A stretch of DNA of 53,531 nucleotides from IMG/VR virus record IMGVR_UViG_3300020045_008912, positions 1-53,531 of that record. One strand, given 5' to 3'. Positions 40,001 through 48,984 of the stretch are shown piece after piece (position 1 is the stretch's first letter; each line of letters begins with the position of its first letter). Below the pieces are notes generated by a model. That model saw only the letters and a list, made by a program, of their open reading frames with translations, was not told the DNA's origin and made no database searches. This stretch comes from a virus (Duplodnaviria > Caudoviricetes). The translations under genes and the position numbers were made by a program.

Positions 40001-42634
40001 TTAAAAAGGTAAATCATCCGCCGAAAGTGTGTATTCATTTTTATCCGCCCAACTGCTATTAATAGGGCATAGTTCTGCCTCAATCGCCAATGGGACATTA
40101 ATCCAACTGAACGCTTTTGGGAGTTCAATTGTTGCTAGGCGTTGAATTTGTAAATACACGGATTCTAACTCAGGAGGGTAAACGTCTAAAACCAGTGCAT
40201 CATGAATTTGCCCAACTAACTTTGTTTTATACCCTTTTTCCTCTAACCAATCAGTTAATGCAGTAAACGTCCAAAGCAAGCAATGAAAAGCGGCGCCTTG
40301 TACGGGGTAATTACTCACATCATTAAAAGACATAACGCCTTTACAAACAAACCCCGTTTTTAAACTGATATAACCGTTTTTTAAATATGCCTCGTAATGA
40401 CTTTTTTTCCATTTGTTGTAAACAGGAAACCTATTTTCCCAAAAATCCTTTTCAATCCTTTTTACATGCTCACAAAATTGGTCGTAACTCTTTATTCCCG
40501 ATTTAATTAAATGACTTCCTAAAGTTGTCCCATCCTTCATTTTCATGCCCATATCTTTAGTCCACGTACTTTGTGGAAGCTCTACCCAACTGCCGCAAAT
40601 ACTGTCAGCATTATTTTTATAATAATCACCATAAAATTGAGGAAAGACAAATCCATTTTTAGCCGCCGCTCTGAGTGTTTTATGGTCGCTTTTATGTTTA
40701 TCGAAATCCTTAATAATAAAGATTTGTTTAGCCATATCTCCGTGCATATCAGAAAGAGGATCCGTAATGTATTTTATCATTGTTGGGTCCTTGTGATACG
40801 CTGCGGCAATAGCGACCTCAATCCCACTAAAGTCCATTTCCAATAACTGATTTCCAGGACGTGGGTATATTGCTCTCCGAACTGTATCCATAGCCACCTT
40901 ATCCCTTTTAGGAATGTTTTGAAAGTTAGGGTTACTGGAAGAACTTCGGTAGGTCCTAGCTAAGTGTAAATTGAAAAATGGATGTAGATACTCTTTTACC
41001 TGTTCCCTTATGAAAGCTTCCAAATATGTATCTCTTACTTTTTTCAACTTTGAACGCTCAACAATCCAATCCAATTCTGGAATTTTTAACATTTTTAATG
41101 CCTCGTCATCCGTGCTGCCTTTTCCAGTATCAGTAAGTTTGGGAGGCGTTAATTTTCGTATGTTATACAAATAATTTCCTAACATCGGGCCGCTATTCAA
41201 ATTTACCTTTGTTTTTGCAGAATGCTGCCAACGTTTGTAGAAATTAGAGGCAAAAATATTAGTTTCTAATTCTGTTATTTGAGCTGTTAATTCCATTTTT
41301 TTACGTTCGGCGTATTCAGTATCAATTCTTAGGCCCTGTCTTTCTGCTTTTGCAAGCGCAATAATTCCATTATGAAGCAAATTATAGGCGGCTGGAAAAT
41401 TACTATTTATGGGAGAAATTACACTTTCTCCCTGTGTCCCTAACATGCTTTTTTTAGTAAGCATAGCCAACCTATATTCAAAAATAGAATCTAAGGCACA
41501 ATACTTTAAAACAAGTTCCTTACCGTTCGGTTTCTCCAGTAATTCCTCAATTCTATTGATAGAATTTCCATTTCCATCATCTACAGCCTTTAAGTAAGGA
41601 GCGACCTCACCAGCATAATCGACCACACCAAATTGAACATATGTTTGGAATTTTAAGCCTGTAATATCTGACCTATTATCCACTATATGTGTTGCCAACA
41701 TCGTATCATACACCCAATTATTTACAGGGATTTTAAGACGCTCTTTAGTCCATGTATCCTCAAATTTCATGTTTTGAGCTATTTTCCCAATCATTTTATT
41801 TTGCAGTAAGTCAGTAAAGGGCTTCCGCATCTGCTTTGTATCTGGCATTATAAAGCTATATACGGTATCCTCATTAATAGCTACAGAGGCGCACTTAATC
41901 TTATGGCCTGCTGCATGAGGTTTTAGCCCAGTAGTCTCATAGTCAAAGGCAATAATACCCGTTTTAATAGTATTTAAAACTGACAAATCATCCTCTAAAT
42001 AAGTGATTTTAGGCTCTTTGTATTTTGGAAATGTAAATTTTGAAACTGCAACCGCTTTTTTCAAATCCTCTTTGAATAATAATTTTTCAATTTTGTATGG
42101 AGCTTCCCAAGCAGTTTCCAAACTAAATGTTGGACAAATGTATGCGAGTAAGTCCTGATCTGGAATTTGAAACCCTTGCCATTTTTCAATATTGCCCAAA
42201 CTATTTTTCCACCTTTTCCCTAAAATACTGTAAAGAGCTTCCTCACCAAATACTACAATAACTTTAGGCTTGTATTCCTCTATCACTTTTAAAAGGTATT
42301 TCCTACAGCAATCCAATTGGTACGGAGTAGGTGCTTGTTTAGGTGCGCATTTTATGGCATATGTATTTAAACAATCCTCCCATAAATCAATTCCAAGCGT
42401 GTGATAGGTTTCCTCTAGTAATCTCCCATACTTACTTTGAAAGGGTTTTCCGCGTCTATCTTCCGTATCCGATGGCATACTACCAATATTCAAAATTCCA
42501 CGCTTAAAACCGCCGGAAACGGCTAATTTTGGCGAATTACAGTCCTTATATAACCCACAACTTACACATGAGTATGTTTTTCCATCTGGGCGGGTTGTGC
42601 TTTCCGTCTCTTTTTTAGAAAAGAATCCTTCCAT
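40001..42634 (-). CDS. polA: Family A DNA polymerase with N-terminal uracil-DNA-glycosylase-like domain and 3'-5' exonuclease
   Basis: UDG-4-like CVSCGL...ED..GKPF; exonuclease FDYETTGL, QNMKFE, YCALD; polymerase SSSNPNFQNIP, DFSGIE, RAAAKNGFVFPQFYG, NYPVQG, QIHDAL. Start taken at MEGFF (42634). Confidence 0.95.
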   Translation of the reverse strand: MEGFFSKKETESTTRPDGKTYSCVSCGLYKDCNSPKLAVSGGFKRGILNIGSMPSDTEDRRGKPFQSKYGRLLEETYHTLGIDLWEDCLNTYAIKCAPKQAPTPYQLDCCRKYLLKVIEEYKPKVIVVFGEEALYSILGKRWKNSLGNIEKWQGFQIPDQDLLAYICPTFSLETAWEAPYKIEKLLFKEDLKKAVAVSKFTFPKYKEPKITYLEDDLSVLNTIKTGIIAFDYETTGLKPHAAGHKIKCASVAINEDTVYSFIMPDTKQMRKPFTDLLQNKMIGKIAQNMKFEDTWTKERLKIPVNNWVYDTMLATHIVDNRSDITGLKFQTYVQFGVVDYAGEVAPYLKAVDDGNGNSINRIEELLEKPNGKELVLKYCALDSIFEYRLAMLTKKSMLGTQGESVISPINSNFPAAYNLLHNGIIALAKAERQGLRIDTEYAERKKMELTAQITELETNIFASNFYKRWQHSAKTKVNLNSGPMLGNYLYNIRKLTPPKLTDTGKGSTDDEALKMLKIPELDWIVERSKLKKVRDTYLEAFIREQVKEYLHPFFNLHLARTYRSSSSNPNFQNIPKRDKVAMDTVRRAIYPRPGNQLLEMDFSGIEVAIAAAYHKDPTMIKYITDPLSDMHGDMAKQIFIIKDFDKHKSDHKTLRAAAKNGFVFPQFYGDYYKNNADSICGSWVELPQSTWTKDMGMKMKDGTTLGSHLIKSGIKSYDQFCEHVKRIEKDFWENRFPVYNKWKKSHYEAYLKNGYISLKTGFVCKGVMSFNDVSNYPVQGAAFHCLLWTFTALTDWLEEKGYKTKLVGQIHDALVLDVYPPELESVYLQIQRLATIELPKAFSWINVPLAIEAELCPINSSWADKNEYTLSADDLPF

Positions 42635-42636
42635 AC

Positions 42637-43641
42637 TTATGATTTTAACATGGTTATATAAATCCAACCATCGCCTTCAAACATCAAACGTTTATTAGAA
42701 ATTTTACAGGTGTTTTTTTCTGAAATAATATCCTTTAAAAGGTAGGGTGTGATTTTAAATTCCAAAGATTCTCCTTTGTATTCTGTTTTTGCTTTCTCAG
42801 TAAACCAACCACTCGCCGAAGTGCTTTGCACTTGTAATTTTCCACTTTCTAAAGTTATTGTCACCGTTTCATCTAAAATACTGTCTCTCTTTGAGAAAAT
42901 TCCGGCACGGTCCAAAATAGTGCTAAGTTCTTTAGGAAATATTAAATCCTCTCCCTCAATTGCTGCAATGGATTTTAAATTCACATATTTTTCCTCAAAT
43001 ATGCGGCAGCTCAATACTGCCTTATCTTTGTTTTTAAAATGTACCCATCCTTTTCCTTCCGCAATCTCAGTAGGTTGAAATTTCAGTACATTCCCACAAC
43101 TATTTGCTGGCAAAAGAAATTCAGAGATTGGAATGGGTTTTTCGAGCGTGTATATAGCCAATCTATAGTTATCCGCCGCCTCTATTGTTTCTTTGTTAAT
43201 GTGAACACATGTAAGAATAGGCCTAGACATATCCCGGGAAGTTGCTCCCATTGTAAATGAAATAGCCTTTAAAAATTGCATTGGTAAAGCTTTCCATTTT
43301 GTTATTTCTCCAATTTCACTAATTGGTAATTTTATTTCTGATTGTAAAATCAAACCCGCTTTAGATTTTCCAGCCCTGCAAATCAATTCATTTTCCACAA
43401 CCTCCAAATCTAATTCCTCTACCTGTACTTTGTTTACAAATGAGTAAAACTCGTTGGCATTTACAGCTCCCTCCAATTCTAATTCAGAGATAGGCATAGA
43501 AATACTTATTTCATCATTATAGGTGATTACTCTACCATTTAAAAAACAAAAGGAAGTGGATTGTTCAATCATTTCCTTATTAGATAACCCGGGCTTTACT
43601 GTTTCTAAAGCTTTCTGCAAAATCTCTTTGTTAATTTTCAT
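42637..43641 (-). CDS. dnaN: DNA sliding clamp (Pol III beta-like)
   Basis: 334 aa; TSRDMSRPILTCVHI and AADNYRLA match the beta-clamp RPxLxGV and ATDGxRL motifs. Confidence 0.85.
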   Translation of the reverse strand: MKINKEILQKALETVKPGLSNKEMIEQSTSFCFLNGRVITYNDEISISMPISELELEGAVNANEFYSFVNKVQVEELDLEVVENELICRAGKSKAGLILQSEIKLPISEIGEITKWKALPMQFLKAISFTMGATSRDMSRPILTCVHINKETIEAADNYRLAIYTLEKPIPISEFLLPANSCGNVLKFQPTEIAEGKGWVHFKNKDKAVLSCRIFEEKYVNLKSIAAIEGEDLIFPKELSTILDRAGIFSKRDSILDETVTITLESGKLQVQSTSASGWFTEKAKTEYKGESLEFKITPYLLKDIISEKNTCKISNKRLMFEGDGWIYITMLKS

Positions 43642-43643
43642 AA

Positions 43644-44597
43644 TTATAAATTTAAAGTTGTACGAGGTAAAAAATCTTTGTTTTGTTTTTGTTCATTTAT
43701 GTGTTTTTCAAGTCCTAAAAAAAAGCGAATATTAAACATTGCACGAGCTCCAAACGTTTGCAAGGATTCAATGCTGTATCCGTCTTTTTTTAGTATGTTT
43801 TCAATCTTTTTTGGGATTACATTCCCTTTTGTATTTGCAATGTAGATAACTTCCATTTTAGTATAATCCGAACTGGAAAAGCCTCCTAATGGGTAATAAA
43901 TAGAACCTGTAGCCGCCGAGAGCCTCCAGCTTGCGGCATCGCATGAGGTCCAAGGGAAGTCCCTCAATAATGAAGTGGAAGCAACTGCAAACCCGTGGGT
44001 TTTCACATCAATACTATTTTTTTCCAAATAGGTAAATACAGAATGAATCCATTGTTTTTTAGAGGCTGGCGGCATATCATTTGCGGGAGAAATTCCAATA
44101 TAGTCAGTGTATTGTATCATTCTTTCCAACCATTTCCATTCCTCTCCTTGATGAAATACATGTATGGGTTTAATGTTTGCCGCCACCATCTTTTTTAGAT
44201 TCGTAAAGCCTTCTTTGGCAGCTTTATTAATTAAATCCTTATTGGCTGTATTTGTAAATTTCTGTAGGTTCTTTGTTTCACCAGCTTTCCCTGGAATAAC
44301 GTCCAAATTAACAATGTGAATATCCTTATTACTTACTTTCCCCTCCTCAATTGCTTTCAAACTGTATTCAATATAAGAGGTAATGTCAATCACTGAGCCT
44401 TTATTCCAAGCCGAAAAGGCTCCACTATCTACAATAATGGAGCCTTTTTCTTTATTTGAAATAGCCATCCAATCTTTGAAAAGTTTTGGGTAAGCGAAAG
44501 AAACTAACCTATTTGAAACGTCACATGTAATTTTGTTCCTATTAGTGTCCTCAATCGCACTCCAATCCCCTGCAAAGTATAATTTAATGGCTTTCAT
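43644..44597 (-). CDS. dpdA: DpdA, DNA 7-deazaguanine transglycosylase (TGT-like)
   Basis: IVDSGAFSAW, NLDVIPG, PIHVFHQGE, YIGIS, KTHGFA, FPWTSCDAASW; last gene of the que cluster. Confidence 0.85.
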   Translation of the reverse strand: MKAIKLYFAGDWSAIEDTNRNKITCDVSNRLVSFAYPKLFKDWMAISNKEKGSIIVDSGAFSAWNKGSVIDITSYIEYSLKAIEEGKVSNKDIHIVNLDVIPGKAGETKNLQKFTNTANKDLINKAAKEGFTNLKKMVAANIKPIHVFHQGEEWKWLERMIQYTDYIGISPANDMPPASKKQWIHSVFTYLEKNSIDVKTHGFAVASTSLLRDFPWTSCDAASWRLSAATGSIYYPLGGFSSSDYTKMEVIYIANTKGNVIPKKIENILKKDGYSIESLQTFGARAMFNIRFFLGLEKHINEQKQNKDFLPRTTLNL

Positions 44598-45013
44598 TAC
44601 CTTTCAGGATAAGAGGCTATTACATTTATCAATGTACCACCTCTTGCATTAAAATTGGCGGTAACTCTCATCCAATGTGGATCACATACTTTTACGCAAT
44701 CCTCCAAAATTTGATTGGTAATAGTTTCCATAAATGCACCTTCATTTCTGAATGCCAAATAATAAATCTTAAGGCTTTTAGTTTCAATACATTTATCTTT
44801 TGGGCAGTACTCTAAAGAGATTGTGGCAAAATCAGGTTGGTGTGTTTTTGGGCATAAGCTTGTAAACTCATTGAACACAAATTCCGTACGGTATTTCCTA
44901 TGTGGAAATTGATTGTCGAATACTTCCAGTAAATGACTTCCCGGATTATTATATTGGTACACTGTTTTTTTGGAACCTAAATTTATGAGGTTCTTTACGT
45001 TGTCTTTTTTCAT
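44597..45013 (-). CDS. queF: preQ0 reductase (QueF, type I)
   Basis: EFTSLCPKTHQPDFA with catalytic Cys/Asp, QueF motif ETKSLKIYY, terminal RGG. Confidence 0.9.
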   Translation of the reverse strand: MKKDNVKNLINLGSKKTVYQYNNPGSHLLEVFDNQFPHRKYRTEFVFNEFTSLCPKTHQPDFATISLEYCPKDKCIETKSLKIYYLAFRNEGAFMETITNQILEDCVKVCDPHWMRVTANFNARGGTLINVIASYPER

Positions 45014-45663
45014 ATTTCAATAGATTTAATAGGATAATTTTTTAAAACAAAAGGAGTAACCTCCTCAACCCATTTGATAATGTCTGAGCACTTATTTTGT
45101 AATTTAAAATGATTACACCAATTTTCTAACATTTTTAGCTTTCTGATAACTTCGGAAATGCTTTCCAGGTCTGGCGCTGTCATTGTACACAAAGCACCTC
45201 TTTCTCCATCTATTCTTAGCATATTCCATCCTCTTCCATATAGCTTTTGGGTAATTAAGTTAGGATGCGTAGTACTTGCAAAAGAAAGGGTCCTAATTAG
45301 CTCAAAATCACAACTAAAAGGGTGCTTTTTATGAATACCACACCTACCGTCTTTTTTTAAATGTTTGCATTGGTGTCCAGTATTTTCTTTTTGTAAATCA
45401 GAATATAAAAGAACACGTCTCCCATTGAAAATTATTTTTCTGGGAGGCATCTCATAAGGGAGTATGGAAGTAGGGAGATAATCTAAACTAAATTTTAGAC
45501 AGCATGCCCCGCACTTTTCCGGGCACTCAAATCCTCTAAATAATAAAGGACTCACCATAAGTGGTTTAGGCATATACATTTTCCCTTTATAAGTAAATGC
45601 CTGCTTTGTAACTACTGAAAAATAGCTATCTACTATTTTATCAAAACTATCTCCCTTTGCCAT
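45010..45663 (-). CDS. Cys-cluster (CxxCxxCC / YkgJ / DUF3109-like) metalloprotein; candidate preQ1-modifying enzyme
   Basis: CPEKCGACC...CKHL...GRCGIH..HPFSC; embedded between folE and queF with a 4-nt overlap to queF. Confidence 0.65.
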   Translation of the reverse strand: MAKGDSFDKIVDSYFSVVTKQAFTYKGKMYMPKPLMVSPLLFRGFECPEKCGACCLKFSLDYLPTSILPYEMPPRKIIFNGRRVLLYSDLQKENTGHQCKHLKKDGRCGIHKKHPFSCDFELIRTLSFASTTHPNLITQKLYGRGWNMLRIDGERGALCTMTAPDLESISEVIRKLKMLENWCNHFKLQNKCSDIIKWVEEVTPFVLKNYPIKSIEI

Positions 45664-45666
45664 ATT

Positions 45667-46227
45667 TTATTTTATTAATTGCATTAACTCAGCCTTTGCA
45701 CTTGCATCGGTCATAAAAACACCTTTCATACTTGATGTTACCATAGTGCTTTCCTGTTTGGAAGCACCGCGCATCCTCATACACATATGACCAGCCTCAA
45801 TAATACAAGCAGCACCTAACGGCTTCAAATGATCCATCAATGCACTTGTAACCTGTTCACCAATCCTTTCTTGTATTTGCATCCTACGAGCGTATATTTC
45901 CAACAGTCTCGCAAGCTTAGAAATACCAATAATTTTAGTATCAGGAATATACGCAATATGAGCTTTACCAAAAAATGGTAGCATATGATGCTCACACATG
46001 GAATAAAACTCAATATCCTTTAAAAGTATGATTTGGTCATAACCTTCAGCACTAAATGTAGTTAGAACATCCTCAGGATTTTTCGAGTAGCCTGAATAAA
46101 TTTCATCCCATGACTTAATTACACGCCTGGGAGTAGCTAATAAACCTTCCCTTTCTGGATTCTCTCCAATTTTTTCGATAATGTTTGAAAGTATTGCCTT
46201 CAAAACTGGATTTTCACTATTTTGCAT
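45667..46227 (-). CDS. folE: GTP cyclohydrolase I
   Basis: REGLLATPRRV, SMCEHHMLPFFG, GISKLAR, QIQER, HMCMRMRG. Start taken at MQNSE (46227). Confidence 0.96.
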   Translation of the reverse strand: MQNSENPVLKAILSNIIEKIGENPEREGLLATPRRVIKSWDEIYSGYSKNPEDVLTTFSAEGYDQIILLKDIEFYSMCEHHMLPFFGKAHIAYIPDTKIIGISKLARLLEIYARRMQIQERIGEQVTSALMDHLKPLGAACIIEAGHMCMRMRGASKQESTMVTSSMKGVFMTDASAKAELMQLIK

Positions 46228-46900
46228 AAGGCACAGGATCAGTTTGATTAATATTTGCAAAAGCCTCTAAACGTTCAACACAACTGCCGCACTTACCACA
46301 TGCTATAGCTTGGTCCTTATAACAAGTCCTTGTTAAATGGTAAGGCACTGTGAACGCTGTATAATTATAACCATACTCCAAAATACTTGTTTTGTTGTCA
46401 GTTATAAATGGAGTCAACACTTGCACTTTTTTATCTGAAGATAAAAAAATCACAGTATCCAGAGCCTTTATAAATTCGGGTCTACAATCTGGATAAATTG
46501 AATGGTCTCCAGAATGAACACCCAGCGCAATTGCTTCCGCTTGTATGCTTTCGGCAATACCTGCCATAATAGCTGCAAAAATCATATTTCGCCCGGGAAC
46601 CACTGTTTTTTTCATGTTTTCATCTGCATAATGACCTTCTGGAATTTCTCCTCCACTTAAAAGTAGATTTGATTCAAAGGGCTTAAATACTTCCCGCAAA
46701 TCAAATACAGTCACAAATACAGGACTTAAATTCTTTTTGTAGTACTCAGCTACATCCAAAGCGGCTTTATTTTCGTAGGCATTATGCTTGGAGCCGTAAT
46801 TAAACACGCAACAATGTACCTCATAGCCTTGCTCTAGTAAAAAGCCCAAAAGAGTAGCGGAATCCATTCCGCCACTCAATCCTATCACAATTTTTTTCAA
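46217..46900 (-). CDS. queC: 7-cyano-7-deazaguanine synthase
   Basis: LSGGMDS, VPGRNMIF, YPDCRPEF, TRTCY, CGKCGSCVER; TTG start. Confidence 0.96.
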   Translation of the reverse strand: MKKIVIGLSGGMDSATLLGFLLEQGYEVHCCVFNYGSKHNAYENKAALDVAEYYKKNLSPVFVTVFDLREVFKPFESNLLLSGGEIPEGHYADENMKKTVVPGRNMIFAAIMAGIAESIQAEAIALGVHSGDHSIYPDCRPEFIKALDTVIFLSSDKKVQVLTPFITDNKTSILEYGYNYTAFTVPYHLTRTCYKDQAIACGKCGSCVERLEAFANINQTDPVPYAK

Positions 46901-46904
46901 CTGA

Positions 46905-47732
46905 TTACTTTTTGAAAGAAAATACTCCTACCTCATTCGACACCACAAGCTTTTCAAACTTGTTATATTTTGGATTTTTACAATCCGTAAGGATTACTTG
47001 ATGCCCTCCGATTGGCATGTCTGGCCATTTTTCAACCATCATTTCCAATAACTCTTTTTTATTGTATTTTGCTTTTGCAATGAATGGCGCAATAAATGCG
47101 ATGCGGTCCGCTGTAGTTACTTTTGCAGCGCCAACAATTTTCTTAGGCTTTTCAGCTTTTGCAGGGGTTGTCTTTGCTGTTTCTTTTTTAGCAACAGGAG
47201 CCACCTCTTTTTTGGTTTCTTTTACAGGTTCTTTCACAGTTTCTTTTTTACCTGTAGTTTTTGCTTTCTTAGGCTCAATTATTGCCATCATTTCGGAAAC
47301 TAAATCATCCAAATTGAATTTCCCTTTTACAGTTTTACGCAATGAAGCAAATTCCTCATTATTTTTAATAATTTCCTTTAAATCGGAAATTGTGATAGCT
47401 TCCTCAATTTGTTCCTTCAAAGATAACGCCTCCTCCTCTTCACTTTCTTCCTCCTCTTCAGTCTCTTCCTCATTCTCCTCTTCCTCATTCTCCTCCTCTT
47501 CAGCACCGGCTTCCTCTGCATTTTCTTTTAAAGCAGCAATGACATTTTTAACAAGTGGGGTGAGGTCCTCGTCGTCGTCGTCCGTCAATAATTCTGAAGC
47601 CTCTAAAATTGCGGTGGATAATTCTGCCGCACCCAATTTAACATCAATTTGGTCCGCATCTTTTGGGTCAAATAATAAAGCATTTAATTCCTTACCTGCT
47701 TTTTTCAAGTCATTTAATTTTACGTCTTTCAT
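46905..47732 (-). CDS. Acidic/Lys-rich low-complexity protein inserted in the que cluster
   Basis: Poly-Glu tract, then a K/A/E/T-rich linker and a compact C-terminal domain; has its own A/T-rich upstream region. Confidence 0.75.
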   Translation of the reverse strand: MKDVKLNDLKKAGKELNALLFDPKDADQIDVKLGAAELSTAILEASELLTDDDDEDLTPLVKNVIAALKENAEEAGAEEEENEEEENEEETEEEEESEEEEALSLKEQIEEAITISDLKEIIKNNEEFASLRKTVKGKFNLDDLVSEMMAIIEPKKAKTTGKKETVKEPVKETKKEVAPVAKKETAKTTPAKAEKPKKIVGAAKVTTADRIAFIAPFIAKAKYNKKELLEMMVEKWPDMPIGGHQVILTDCKNPKYNKFEKLVVSNEVGVFSFKK

Positions 47733-47864
47733 TTTTTTAATTTTTATGATTAAACAATTTATTTGTTTTTAAATTTTGTCTAGGCTTTTTGCTTTTGACA
47801 TTTCAAAGTAAACAGTTTCCTTCCACATAAAAAAATATTTTTACAATTATTTTTAAAATATTTT

Positions 47865-48641
47865 TTACACGCCTGTTTTTTTATCCCAAATAATAACATG
47901 CTCCCTAGTAGTATAGCGGACATTGTTATTAATTGCAATATCCAAAACAATCTCCCTATTCTTTTCAATTTCCTCCCTAGTTTCCCCCAATGGCATTAAA
48001 ACCACCTGCTTTTTATGGATTAAACGAGTAGACAAAAACAGAGTTTCAATTTCCTCCCAGTCTTTTTGTGAGCTAACCACAAATTTAAACCAACTATTTT
48101 TTAATTTAGAAACACGCTCAATTATTCTGGGAATATGTTGAGACCGCATAGGATTACCCGAATTAGATAGTTTTGGACTATTATTCCAGCAATCTATATA
48201 CTGAGCAAGGAAAGGTGAAGGCATTAATGTACATTCATTTTCAATTTCAATGAAAGGTTTGAAAGAATATCTATCAATAAATGCCTCTATAAATTTAATT
48301 AGCTCCATTTGTTGCTTCAAAGGGCTGCCCCCGGTCAGTACTAAATGTTGACCCTCTCTAAGTTTCCATATTAAATCAAATTCAGGATCTTCCATCAATT
48401 TGAATAACTCGGCAAATGAATATGGATTCCCAAATTTCCAAACTTCCTGAGAATCACACCAAACACAATTTAAAGTGCAATGTTGTAACCGCAAAAAAGC
48501 AGAAGGAAACCCTACAAAATTTTCTCCCTGTATTGTATCACAAAAAAACTCCGAAACCTCCAAATGACCTACATAATCATTATCCATATCCAATTCTTTC
48601 TCGAATGTAGGATTGGCGGCTATTAATGTTTTAGGGCTCAT
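47865..48641 (-). CDS. queE: 7-carboxy-7-deazaguanine synthase (radical SAM)
   Basis: EFFCDTIQGE, FLRLQHCTLNCVWCDS, LTGGSP, SPKL. Start taken at MSPKT, overlapping the queD stop. Confidence 0.93.
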   Translation of the reverse strand: MSPKTLIAANPTFEKELDMDNDYVGHLEVSEFFCDTIQGENFVGFPSAFLRLQHCTLNCVWCDSQEVWKFGNPYSFAELFKLMEDPEFDLIWKLREGQHLVLTGGSPLKQQMELIKFIEAFIDRYSFKPFIEIENECTLMPSPFLAQYIDCWNNSPKLSNSGNPMRSQHIPRIIERVSKLKNSWFKFVVSSQKDWEEIETLFLSTRLIHKKQVVLMPLGETREEIEKNREIVLDIAINNNVRYTTREHVIIWDKKTGV

Positions 48642-48984
48642 ATCTCGCATTGGTTTTAGGAGTTTCCGATACTTCCACCGCACTCACTTGCCACATTAGG
48701 TCCTTAAACTTTACGTAAAAATATTGAGCCATATATTCCGCGGTGGGATTAAAGTTTAAAACATCATTTAAATGTTTATGGTCTAAATGTGTATCTATCC
48801 AATTTTTAATTTTGTCGGATTCTCTGTAGTCTACCACAAATCCCACGGCGTTTAATACAGCATTTGAAAACTCAACTTTTACCACATAATTATGCCCATG
48901 TAGCCTTGTACAAGGATGATCCTCAGCTAAGCCTTTTAAAGAGTGGCTGGCACTGAAATGAAACTCTTTACTAATTGTAAACAT
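48631..48984 (-). CDS. queD: 6-carboxytetrahydropterin synthase
   Basis: FSASH, CTRLHGHNY, LDHKHLN, PTAE, VSETP. Confidence 0.95.
   Translation of the reverse strand: MFTISKEFHFSASHSLKGLAEDHPCTRLHGHNYVVKVEFSNAVLNAVGFVVDYRESDKIKNWIDTHLDHKHLNDVLNFNPTAEYMAQYFYVKFKDLMWQVSAVEVSETPKTNARYEP

Follow-up and report, generated by a model that had tools for sequence, protein, structure and literature searches.

A DpdM homolog in a predicted preQ1-DNA modification operon of an uncultivated phage

The virus record IMGVR_UViG_3300020045_008912 is a complete phage genome of 53,531 bp bounded by direct terminal repeats. This whole stretch of DNA (hereafter the window) encodes on its minus strand, between folE and queF, a cysteine-rich protein of 217 amino acids (aa; positions 45010–45663), which is the subject of this analysis. 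Judging by its sequence, the protein is most probably an orthologous form of DpdM that would methylate 7-aminomethyl-7-deazaguanine (preQ1) at its exocyclic aminomethyl nitrogen. The gene is thereby probably of a known kind, DpdM having been described in 2023, rather than one whose product forms a base not described before. The latter option had been raised by an earlier sequence-only reading of this DNA in case the protein was no DpdM ortholog; it appears unlikely now that the protein has been identified as a DpdM homolog, though one from a sub-clade outside the assayed members. The kind of system is already known as well, namely phage anti-restriction DNA hypermodification. With this assignment the annotation can be settled: the DNA of this uncultivated 53.5-kb phage is predicted to contain the deoxynucleoside of preQ1 (dPreQ1) and/or its methylated form (mdPreQ1), by means of a complete folE-queD-queE-queC-queF-dpdA pathway plus DpdM.

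Homology to DpdM and the conserved cysteines

Translation confirmed the open reading frame (ORF) described in the sequence-only reading, with an ATG start and the strings CPEKCGACC (residues 47–55), CKHL (C99), CGIH (C108), and PFSC (C118). When the protein was compared with 50,697 phage records by tblastn, 27 records matched, all with at least 80% query coverage. Seven of them belong to the Cellulophaga phiSM group and 18 to Vibrio phages, including the schizo-T4-like VH7D, phi-Grn1, and phi-ST2 (approximately 27–32% identity, E-values down to 2e-34). The phiSM protein CEPG_00054 (PhiSM_gp53 in the second phiSM record) shares 38.3% identity with the window protein at 98% query coverage (E 4e-31), and AGB06868.1 of VH7D shares 30.3% at 97% (E 1e-29). 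Both of these proteins were named DpdM by Cui et al. (NAR 2023; PMC10516641). The comparison with DpdM that had been proposed thus yielded full-length homology, and the association of a Cys-rich DpdM with methylated preQ1 in the DNA of Cellulophaga phage, which the sequence-only reading had marked for verification, agrees with the published account, the gene in question being the very CEPG_00054 that the window protein matches (PMC10516641). PHROG 16018 matches the window protein as well (1.1e-33). A word-indexed search retrieved 376 homologs at E ≤ 1e-3, and when the representatives of 1.84 billion clusters (50% identity) were searched exhaustively with HMMER, 372 passed E ≤ 1e-3, 130 of them at E ≤ 1e-30; the best non-self match is at 2e-82. 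With this many homologs, 45010–45663 represents a genuine gene rather than an ORF arisen by chance.

The function of DpdM is known from the founding work, and only this work (Cui et al., NAR 2023; PMC10516641) and its preprint were found in a literature search on DpdM and mdPreQ1; among publications from 2023 onward on dPreQ1 in phages, none on the mechanism of DpdM was found, as judged from the listing. In the published text, phiSM DNA is reported to contain 3790 dPreQ1 and 212 mdPreQ1 per 10^6 nucleotides (nt), and mdPreQ1 is reported for the DNA of phi-Grn1 and of phi-ST2 too (PMC10516641). Escherichia coli expressing VH7D DpdA2 together with DpdM formed mdPreQ1 at 9 and 40 per 10^6 nt, and according to the same text none was detected without DpdM or in queF or queC deletion strains; the identity of mdPreQ1 was confirmed with a synthetic standard (PMC10516641). 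Methylation of the preQ1 amine, which the sequence-only reading had put forward, is therefore supported for the window protein through orthology, that is by its matches to the phiSM and VH7D DpdMs and by the eight Cys residues it has kept. From this homology we infer that it catalyzes the same reaction as the assayed DpdMs.

These eight residues are C47, C51, C54, C55, C99, C108, C118, and C159. They are invariant in an alignment of the proteins from the window, Pseudanabaena phage Pan1, Mycobacterium phage Knocker, phiSM, and VH7D, and in the family alignment each occurs in 125 or in all 126 rows. Ten Cys occur in the window protein in total, and the remaining two, C183 and C192, are not conserved among the 126 rows. 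The CX3CX2CC cluster and the four further Cys are common to the window protein and phiSM DpdM, where they correspond to C34, C38, C41, C42, C92, C102, C112, and C150. Cui et al. placed the eight Cys in two predicted metal pockets, and phiSM C34/38/41/42 as well as VH7D C45/49/52/53 fit the numbering given in their text except for one residue each (printed as C33 and C50, respectively; PMC10516641).

Among curated families, only PF03692 matched the window protein (21.7 bits, E 3.3e-4), just below its gathering cut-off of 23 bits; phiSM DpdM scores above it (25.7 bits), and all of 29 DpdM-family rows matched at E ≤ 0.01. As PF03692, a CxxCxxCC domain that putatively chelates zinc or iron, is a broad family, the protein might be a generic YkgJ-type Fe-S or Zn protein, unrelated to DNA modification and present in the operon by chance. 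The comparison with YkgJ, also proposed by the sequence-only reading, was made for the E. coli protein. The Cys motifs of YkgJ align with CGACC, C99, C108, and C118 of the window protein, whereas overall the two proteins are only marginally similar (hhalign probability 23%, E 8.8e-4), and YkgJ is a protein of only 109 aa without the N-terminal β-hairpin region, the C-terminal helices, or an equivalent of C159. We know of no function for YkgJ. The E. coli homolog of DpdM is YkgJ according to Cui et al. (PMC10516641), but the similarity of the window protein to DpdM (E 4e-31) is far stronger than that to PF03692, and a generic role looks untenable, also in view of the genomic linkage described below.

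DUF3109, a further family suggested for comparison, was not matched in hmmscan searches at E ≤ 10, a setting at which the HMMER filters still drop most weak matches; the proteins of the window, phiSM, VH7D, and Pan1 showed only PF03692, and that of Knocker PF03692 plus a chance-level match to DUF4597 (E 0.039). The DUF3109 assignment of DpdM in the founding work came from HHpred (PMC10516641). The first three Cys of the cluster have the CX3CX2C spacing seen in radical S-adenosylmethionine (SAM) enzymes (C47-x3-C51-x2-C54); the radical SAM family PF04055 gave no match to the window protein at E ≤ 10, and no radical SAM structure was among the fold matches listed.

An AlphaFold2 (AF2) model of the window protein, built from a 29-row alignment, reached a pLDDT of 91.0 and a pTM of 0.88. 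Comparison of this model with the PDB gave no Foldseek match at E ≤ 1e-3 and, with VIA-align, none among 48,161 chains at Z ≥ 5, and a profile search of PDB sequences returned only chance matches to Cys-rich proteins (VEGF, RPB3) at E ≥ 0.13. Cui et al. describe the fold of their AlphaFold models of DpdM as unique, with no relative among solved structures and not seen in nucleic-acid methylases (PMC10516641). The absence of a solved relative for our model is consistent with this description but falls short of proving a new fold.

Family distribution and linkage to preQ1-DNA genes

The 372 representatives make the DpdM family far larger than the approximately eight phages of the founding paper (PMC10516641), and it is almost exclusively viral. 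Neighboring protein clusters (Atlas) are 91–94% viral where taxa are known, and a scan of 185,579 prokaryote species, each represented by one genome, yielded only 12 loci, mostly on contigs of metagenome-assembled genomes (MAGs). Such near absence from cells argues further against a generic YkgJ-type protein.

Linkage was assessed in a sample of 70 viral loci from IMG/VR, in which the 7-deazaguanine genes for QueF, DpdA, FolE, QueC, QueD, and QueE were sought by tblastn within 6 kb of the dpdM homolog. For QueE, the QueE of the window and known phage QueE proteins served as queries; the QueF queries included Knocker gene 2 (L005:1310-1702), which was taken for a QueF by its size and position. 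This gene is annotated as “GTP cyclohydrolase I”, has only about 130 aa and adjoins a transglycosylase; if it encodes QueF, its public annotation misleads. A preponderance of homologs unlinked to dpd clusters, named by the sequence-only reading as evidence against its proposal, was not found: at 56 of the 70 viral loci, one or more 7-deazaguanine genes lie no further than 6 kb away. The individual genes were detected at this distance in 44 (QueF), 32 (DpdA), 45 (FolE), 40 (QueC), 41 (QueE), and 33 (QueD) loci, and QueF or DpdA lies within 1 kb in 38. DpdM, QueF, and DpdA are colinear in 18 of the 70, a conserved order that also speaks against chance placement of a YkgJ-type gene, and the exact window order folE-dpdM-queF-dpdA recurs in 10. 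A search of whole contigs recovered QueF above the Pfam cut-off in 11 of the 26 loci that lacked it nearby, including all five records of at least 90% completeness; the remaining QueF-less loci are fragments of 2–77% estimated completeness. Not every phage with QueF has DpdM: Dp-1, Flasso, R5C, and others encode QueF but are outside the 27 records with DpdM.

Besides QueF, the family is tied to several different types of DpdA. In 46 records, tblastn located no DpdA close to DpdM; nine of these carry a phrog_887 DpdA elsewhere in the record, and in seven a DUF6610 (PF20314) protein adjoins DpdM. DUF6610 is identified with DpdA4 by Cui et al., who describe it as specific to archaeal viruses (PMC10516641). 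The seven pairs are located on four bacterial MAG contigs (L091:5337-6618, L086, L083, and L080) and three viral contigs (L012:3179-4435, L037, and L041). On L091 the two genes overlap and are flanked by metH, a helix-turn-helix-cupin gene and an ABC transporter, so that the locus looks chromosomal. A fusion of DUF6610 with QueF, considered on the basis of long open frames, was rejected for L012, where QueF is a separate ORF. The bacterial DUF6610-DpdM pair may constitute a minimal cellular module for preQ1-DNA modification.

Three of 18 long family members, all predicted metagenomic proteins (P0139, 779 aa; P0181, 1064 aa; P0260, 682 aa), contain regions of both DpdM and DpdA according to BLASTP; these may be true fusions or merged gene calls. 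When 10 long members were scanned against Pfam, the sole additional domain was DUF3102 in one of them, which is uninformative, and the DpdA regions came to light with BLAST only. Such joined proteins would fit a non-catalytic role, in which DpdM is a metal-binding partner of DpdA, acting as a specificity or loading factor toward preQ1 or as a redox partner, without methyltransferase activity of its own. The pairing of DpdM homologs with three DpdA types, DpdA1 in the window, DpdA2 in VH7D, and DUF6610, would be compatible with this role, as would the lack of a SAM-binding fold recognizable by Foldseek or VIA-align. The predicted DpdA-DpdM complex (score 0.00) counts neither for nor against binding. 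Nevertheless, we regard a mere partner function as very improbable, because mdPreQ1 appeared in E. coli, which is not otherwise known to make it, only once VH7D DpdM joined DpdA2, and because VH7D DpdA2 alone is reported to insert preQ1 efficiently already (PMC10516641).

Gene neighborhood and proposed pathway

The minus-strand replication and modification module of the window has the order helicase, queD, queE, acidic ORF, queC, folE, dpdM homolog, queF, dpdA, putative clamp, and a DNA polymerase gene with a uracil-DNA glycosylase (UDG) superfamily domain (UDG-PolA). Within it, folE, the dpdM homolog, queF, and dpdA form a tight operon downstream of queD, queE, and queC. The close packing between folE and queF pointed out by the sequence-only reading is evident from the sequence: 3 nt separate the folE stop (45667–45669) from the start of the dpdM homolog (45661–45663), whose stop overlaps with the queF start in an ATGA (45010–45013). 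The queF stop and the dpdA start, in turn, share 1 nt at position 44597.

All genes described in the following are located on the minus strand. The early part of the pathway would be formed by FolE, QueD, QueE, and QueC, which together would provide 7-cyano-7-deazaguanine (preQ0). FolE, a GTP cyclohydrolase I (45667–46260), was identified by PF01227 (5.5e-72), QueD, the 6-carboxytetrahydropterin (CPH4) synthase (48631–48984), by PF01242 PTPS (1.2e-32), and QueC, the preQ0 synthase (46217–46900), by PF06508 (1.7e-53). QueE, a radical SAM 7-carboxy-7-deazaguanine (CDG) synthase (47865–48683), was assigned from a weak match to PF13353 Fer4_12 (1.1e-7) and its context; the true start of queE is probably downstream of the listed GTG. 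PreQ0 would then be reduced to preQ1 by QueF (44597–45013), a unimodular preQ0 reductase recognized by PF14489 (8.7e-31) and by the QueF-II model TIGR03139 (1e-44, 151 bits versus a cut-off of 86.9). DpdA (43644–44597), a DNA 7-deazaguanine transglycosylase that most resembles the DpdA1 type, would exchange guanine for preQ1 in the phage DNA, and the DpdM homolog, predicted to be a dPreQ1/preQ1 N-methyltransferase, would turn dPreQ1, in part or entirely, into mdPreQ1 (+14 Da). Protection from host nucleases is the benefit to be expected from this modification.

The window DpdA matches phrog_887, “queuine tRNA-ribosyltransferase” (1.2e-44), while Pfam and NCBIfam scans returned no match for it. 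With tblastn, 174 phage records were matched, including the phiSM DpdA (35% identity, E 7e-25), which is termed DpdA1 by Cui et al. (PMC10516641), and the “7-deazaguanosine inserting enzyme” of Escherichia phages. PADLOC gave no match for the dpdM homolog, DpdA, or the acidic ORF. The latter (275 aa, 46905–47732) lies between queC and queE, is also without match in Pfam and PHROG, and combines a strongly acidic, Glu/Asp-rich center with a Lys-rich C-terminal half; an ORF of 251 aa on the opposite strand (47017–47772) is probably its low-complexity shadow. Beside dpdA, a putative sliding clamp gene was assigned by its position and by the clamp genes that adjoin the phiSM and Pan1 clusters; it has no Pfam match. 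The module further includes a family A DNA polymerase (40001–42667), in which the UDG-superfamily domain (residues 58–161; PF03167, 7.7e-14) precedes the 3′-5′ exonuclease and polymerase domains. The best matches of this polymerase do not exceed approximately 24% identity, and megablast of positions 40001–48984 against isolated phages gave zero matches, so that a close cultured relative was not found. The G+C content of the window is approximately 34–39%.

The reaction and comparison with known systems

Several observations count against the assignment of the window protein as a preQ1-methylating DpdM, or against the mechanism considered for it below. No assayed DpdM is as similar to the window protein as are the homologs of Pan1 (50.7% identity by tblastn) and Knocker (47.2%), and the function of the window copy and these nearest relatives is deduced from sequence. 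In a quick maximum-likelihood tree of 126 family rows with a midpoint root, the window protein pairs with P0122 (SH-aLRT 90), next to Pan1, and is in no starred clade. The phiSM DpdM falls into a 17-row group across the midpoint root and VH7D DpdM on the 109-row side of the window protein, so that the experimentally linked members would span the family, albeit with weak support; with 65 of its 123 inner branches unresolved, the tree resembles a star, which makes the bracketing of the window protein by validated members weak. With regard to linkage, 14 of the 70 viral loci, several of them short fragments, lack any 7-deazaguanine gene in the surrounding 6 kb; whole-contig searches detected QueF above the cut-off on five of the 14 and a phrog_887 DpdA on four. 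Among the 12 loci on cellular contigs, seven are without que or dpdA genes by tblastn, four of these having DUF6610. One homolog of 47% identity in an isolate of Roseicella aerolata (L082:6001-6633) has neighbors without Pfam or PHROG match, and neither phrog_887 nor DUF6610 was matched anywhere in this genome. The published validation itself is weak: with DpdM present, E. coli retained 0 of 2765 and 97 of 3666 dPreQ1 per 10^6 nt, whereas only the 9 and 40 mdPreQ1 mentioned above were gained, leaving most of the substrate unaccounted for, and in phiSM DNA mdPreQ1 is only about 0.1% of G (PMC10516641). Moreover, Cui et al. argue that the fourth Cys (phiSM C150, equivalent to C159 of the window protein) would disrupt or even preclude the binding of SAM by a [4Fe-4S] cluster (PMC10516641). 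Finally, the link to FliB, the enzyme on which a mechanism can be modeled, is indirect, since hhalign of the DpdM and FliB alignments gave a non-significant probability of 2.6% (E 0.018) over 19 columns that comprise only the C-x8-C-x-IH element, and an NCBIfam scan including the FliB model NF038110 did not match the window protein at E ≤ 0.1. A search with NF038110 and PF03692 across the window's own genome gave no match either.

The missing substrate might indicate that the family performs a different main reaction, with mdPreQ1 as a minor or side product. At least in the clade of Pan1, Knocker, and the window, preQ1 or dPreQ1 could be converted to another derivative, such as a dimethyl product, an aminocarboxypropyl or other adduct, or a labile species, or the enzyme could act on the free base before its insertion. 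DpdM removed 2765 of 2765 and 3569 of 3666 dPreQ1 per 10^6 nt, and this loss is preQ1-specific rather than a sign of general toxicity, because dPreQ0 in the queF deletion strain was unchanged by DpdM (630 versus 696 and 616 versus 672; PMC10516641). Furthermore, phiSM DNA resists many restriction enzymes with only about 1.2% of G reported as modified (PMC10516641), FliB splits SAM to methylthioadenosine (MTA) besides S-adenosylhomocysteine (SAH) and so demonstrates chemistry beyond methyl transfer within the PF03692 group (PMC8598068), and the assayed DpdMs lie outside the window clade. The gap in the dPreQ1 mass balance and the resistance of phiSM hint at chemistry that has been captured only in part. 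However, mdPreQ1 is the only product linked to the family in the published text, where it is confirmed by the synthetic standard (PMC10516641), and all conserved residues are common to the window protein and the assayed DpdMs, so that the sequence gives no hint of a changed reaction. The low yields could also simply stem from the oxygen sensitivity of a cluster in E. coli grown aerobically, or from digestion or quantification having been incomplete. A different main reaction therefore seems rather improbable to us, and N-methylation of preQ1 remains our preferred assignment. The supplementary data of PMC10516641 may already list homologs of the Pan1 and Knocker type.

To our knowledge, FliB is the sole biochemically characterized enzyme that matches the Cys-cluster model PF03692. 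It is a SAM-dependent flagellin lysine N-methylase acting on the lysine ε-amine (Wang et al., PLoS Pathog 2021; PMC8598068), and is reported to contain eight conserved Cys and one oxygen-sensitive [4Fe-4S] cluster bound by CX4CX3CC, to require SAM and dithionite, and to release SAH and MTA as products (PMC8598068). The main text of Cui et al. mentions neither FliB nor flagellin (PMC10516641). By analogy to FliB, the CX3CX2C triad and C159 of the window protein would hold a [4Fe-4S] cluster, and a second Cys4 site (C55, C99, C108, and C118) would hold a second metal or cluster. SAM would be the methyl donor, and the enzyme would be oxygen-sensitive and dependent on a reductant, in which case very low mdPreQ1 yields are to be expected in aerobic E. 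coli. The analogy thus offers a concrete and testable mechanism (SAM, [4Fe-4S], anaerobic assay) that may explain the low published yields under aerobic conditions. A more far-reaching version, which we put forward tentatively and consider unlikely as a whole, holds that DpdMs are oxygen-sensitive [4Fe-4S]/SAM enzymes of the FliB mechanistic class and that the large Pan1/Knocker/window clade, in its native and reducing environment, converts most of the dPreQ1. If true, this would explain the loss of dPreQ1 without mass balance in E. coli; the native product would be high-occupancy mdPreQ1 or a further undescribed derivative, trace mdPreQ1 would understate or misdescribe DpdM, and the bacterial two-gene DUF6610-DpdM cassettes would be minimal cellular modules using host preQ1.

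The closest known system is that of phiSM. Its DpdM has the same length as the window protein (217 aa) and is homologous over the full length, and in both phages queF and a DpdA1-type transglycosylase are neighbors. The gene orders differ, being folE-dpdM-queF-dpdA in the window and queF-dpdM-dpdA in phiSM, and an N-terminal segment of the window protein (residues ~21–33) is absent from phiSM DpdM. Conversely, VH7D DpdM contains insertions that the window protein lacks. The window protein groups with Pan1 and Knocker in a larger sub-group outside the assayed DpdMs. The same place in the pathway can be occupied by a folate-dependent enzyme of the PurN superfamily, which also decorates the amine of dPreQ1 but is unrelated and forms fdPreQ1 (PMC10516641).

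The likeness to FliB is of another kind. Among 12 FliB-family ORFs above the NF038110 cut-off from 401 Pseudomonadota genomes, seven match PF03692 at E ≤ 0.01, as against the 29 of 29 DpdM-family rows. As DpdM and FliB are not directly alignable and NF038110 gave no match, the claim is that DpdM works like FliB, not that it is a FliB. FliB differs in being larger (approximately 390–440 aa, with a long C-terminal region), forming oligomers, associating with the membrane, and using protein as its substrate. The cluster is spaced CX4CX3CC in FliB (C16, C21, C25, and C26 of the alignment rows) and CX3CX2CC in the window DpdM, and the dependence on SAM and [4Fe-4S] was measured for FliB but is deduced for DpdM. 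However, both families possess eight conserved Cys in the arrangement C-x(3-4)-C-x(2-3)-CC followed by C-x(8-9)-C-x-[IL]-H, both are without Rossmann or SET folds, and both turn a primary alkyl amine into a secondary N-methyl amine, which suggests, by analogy, that the chemistry of DpdM is the same as that of FliB.

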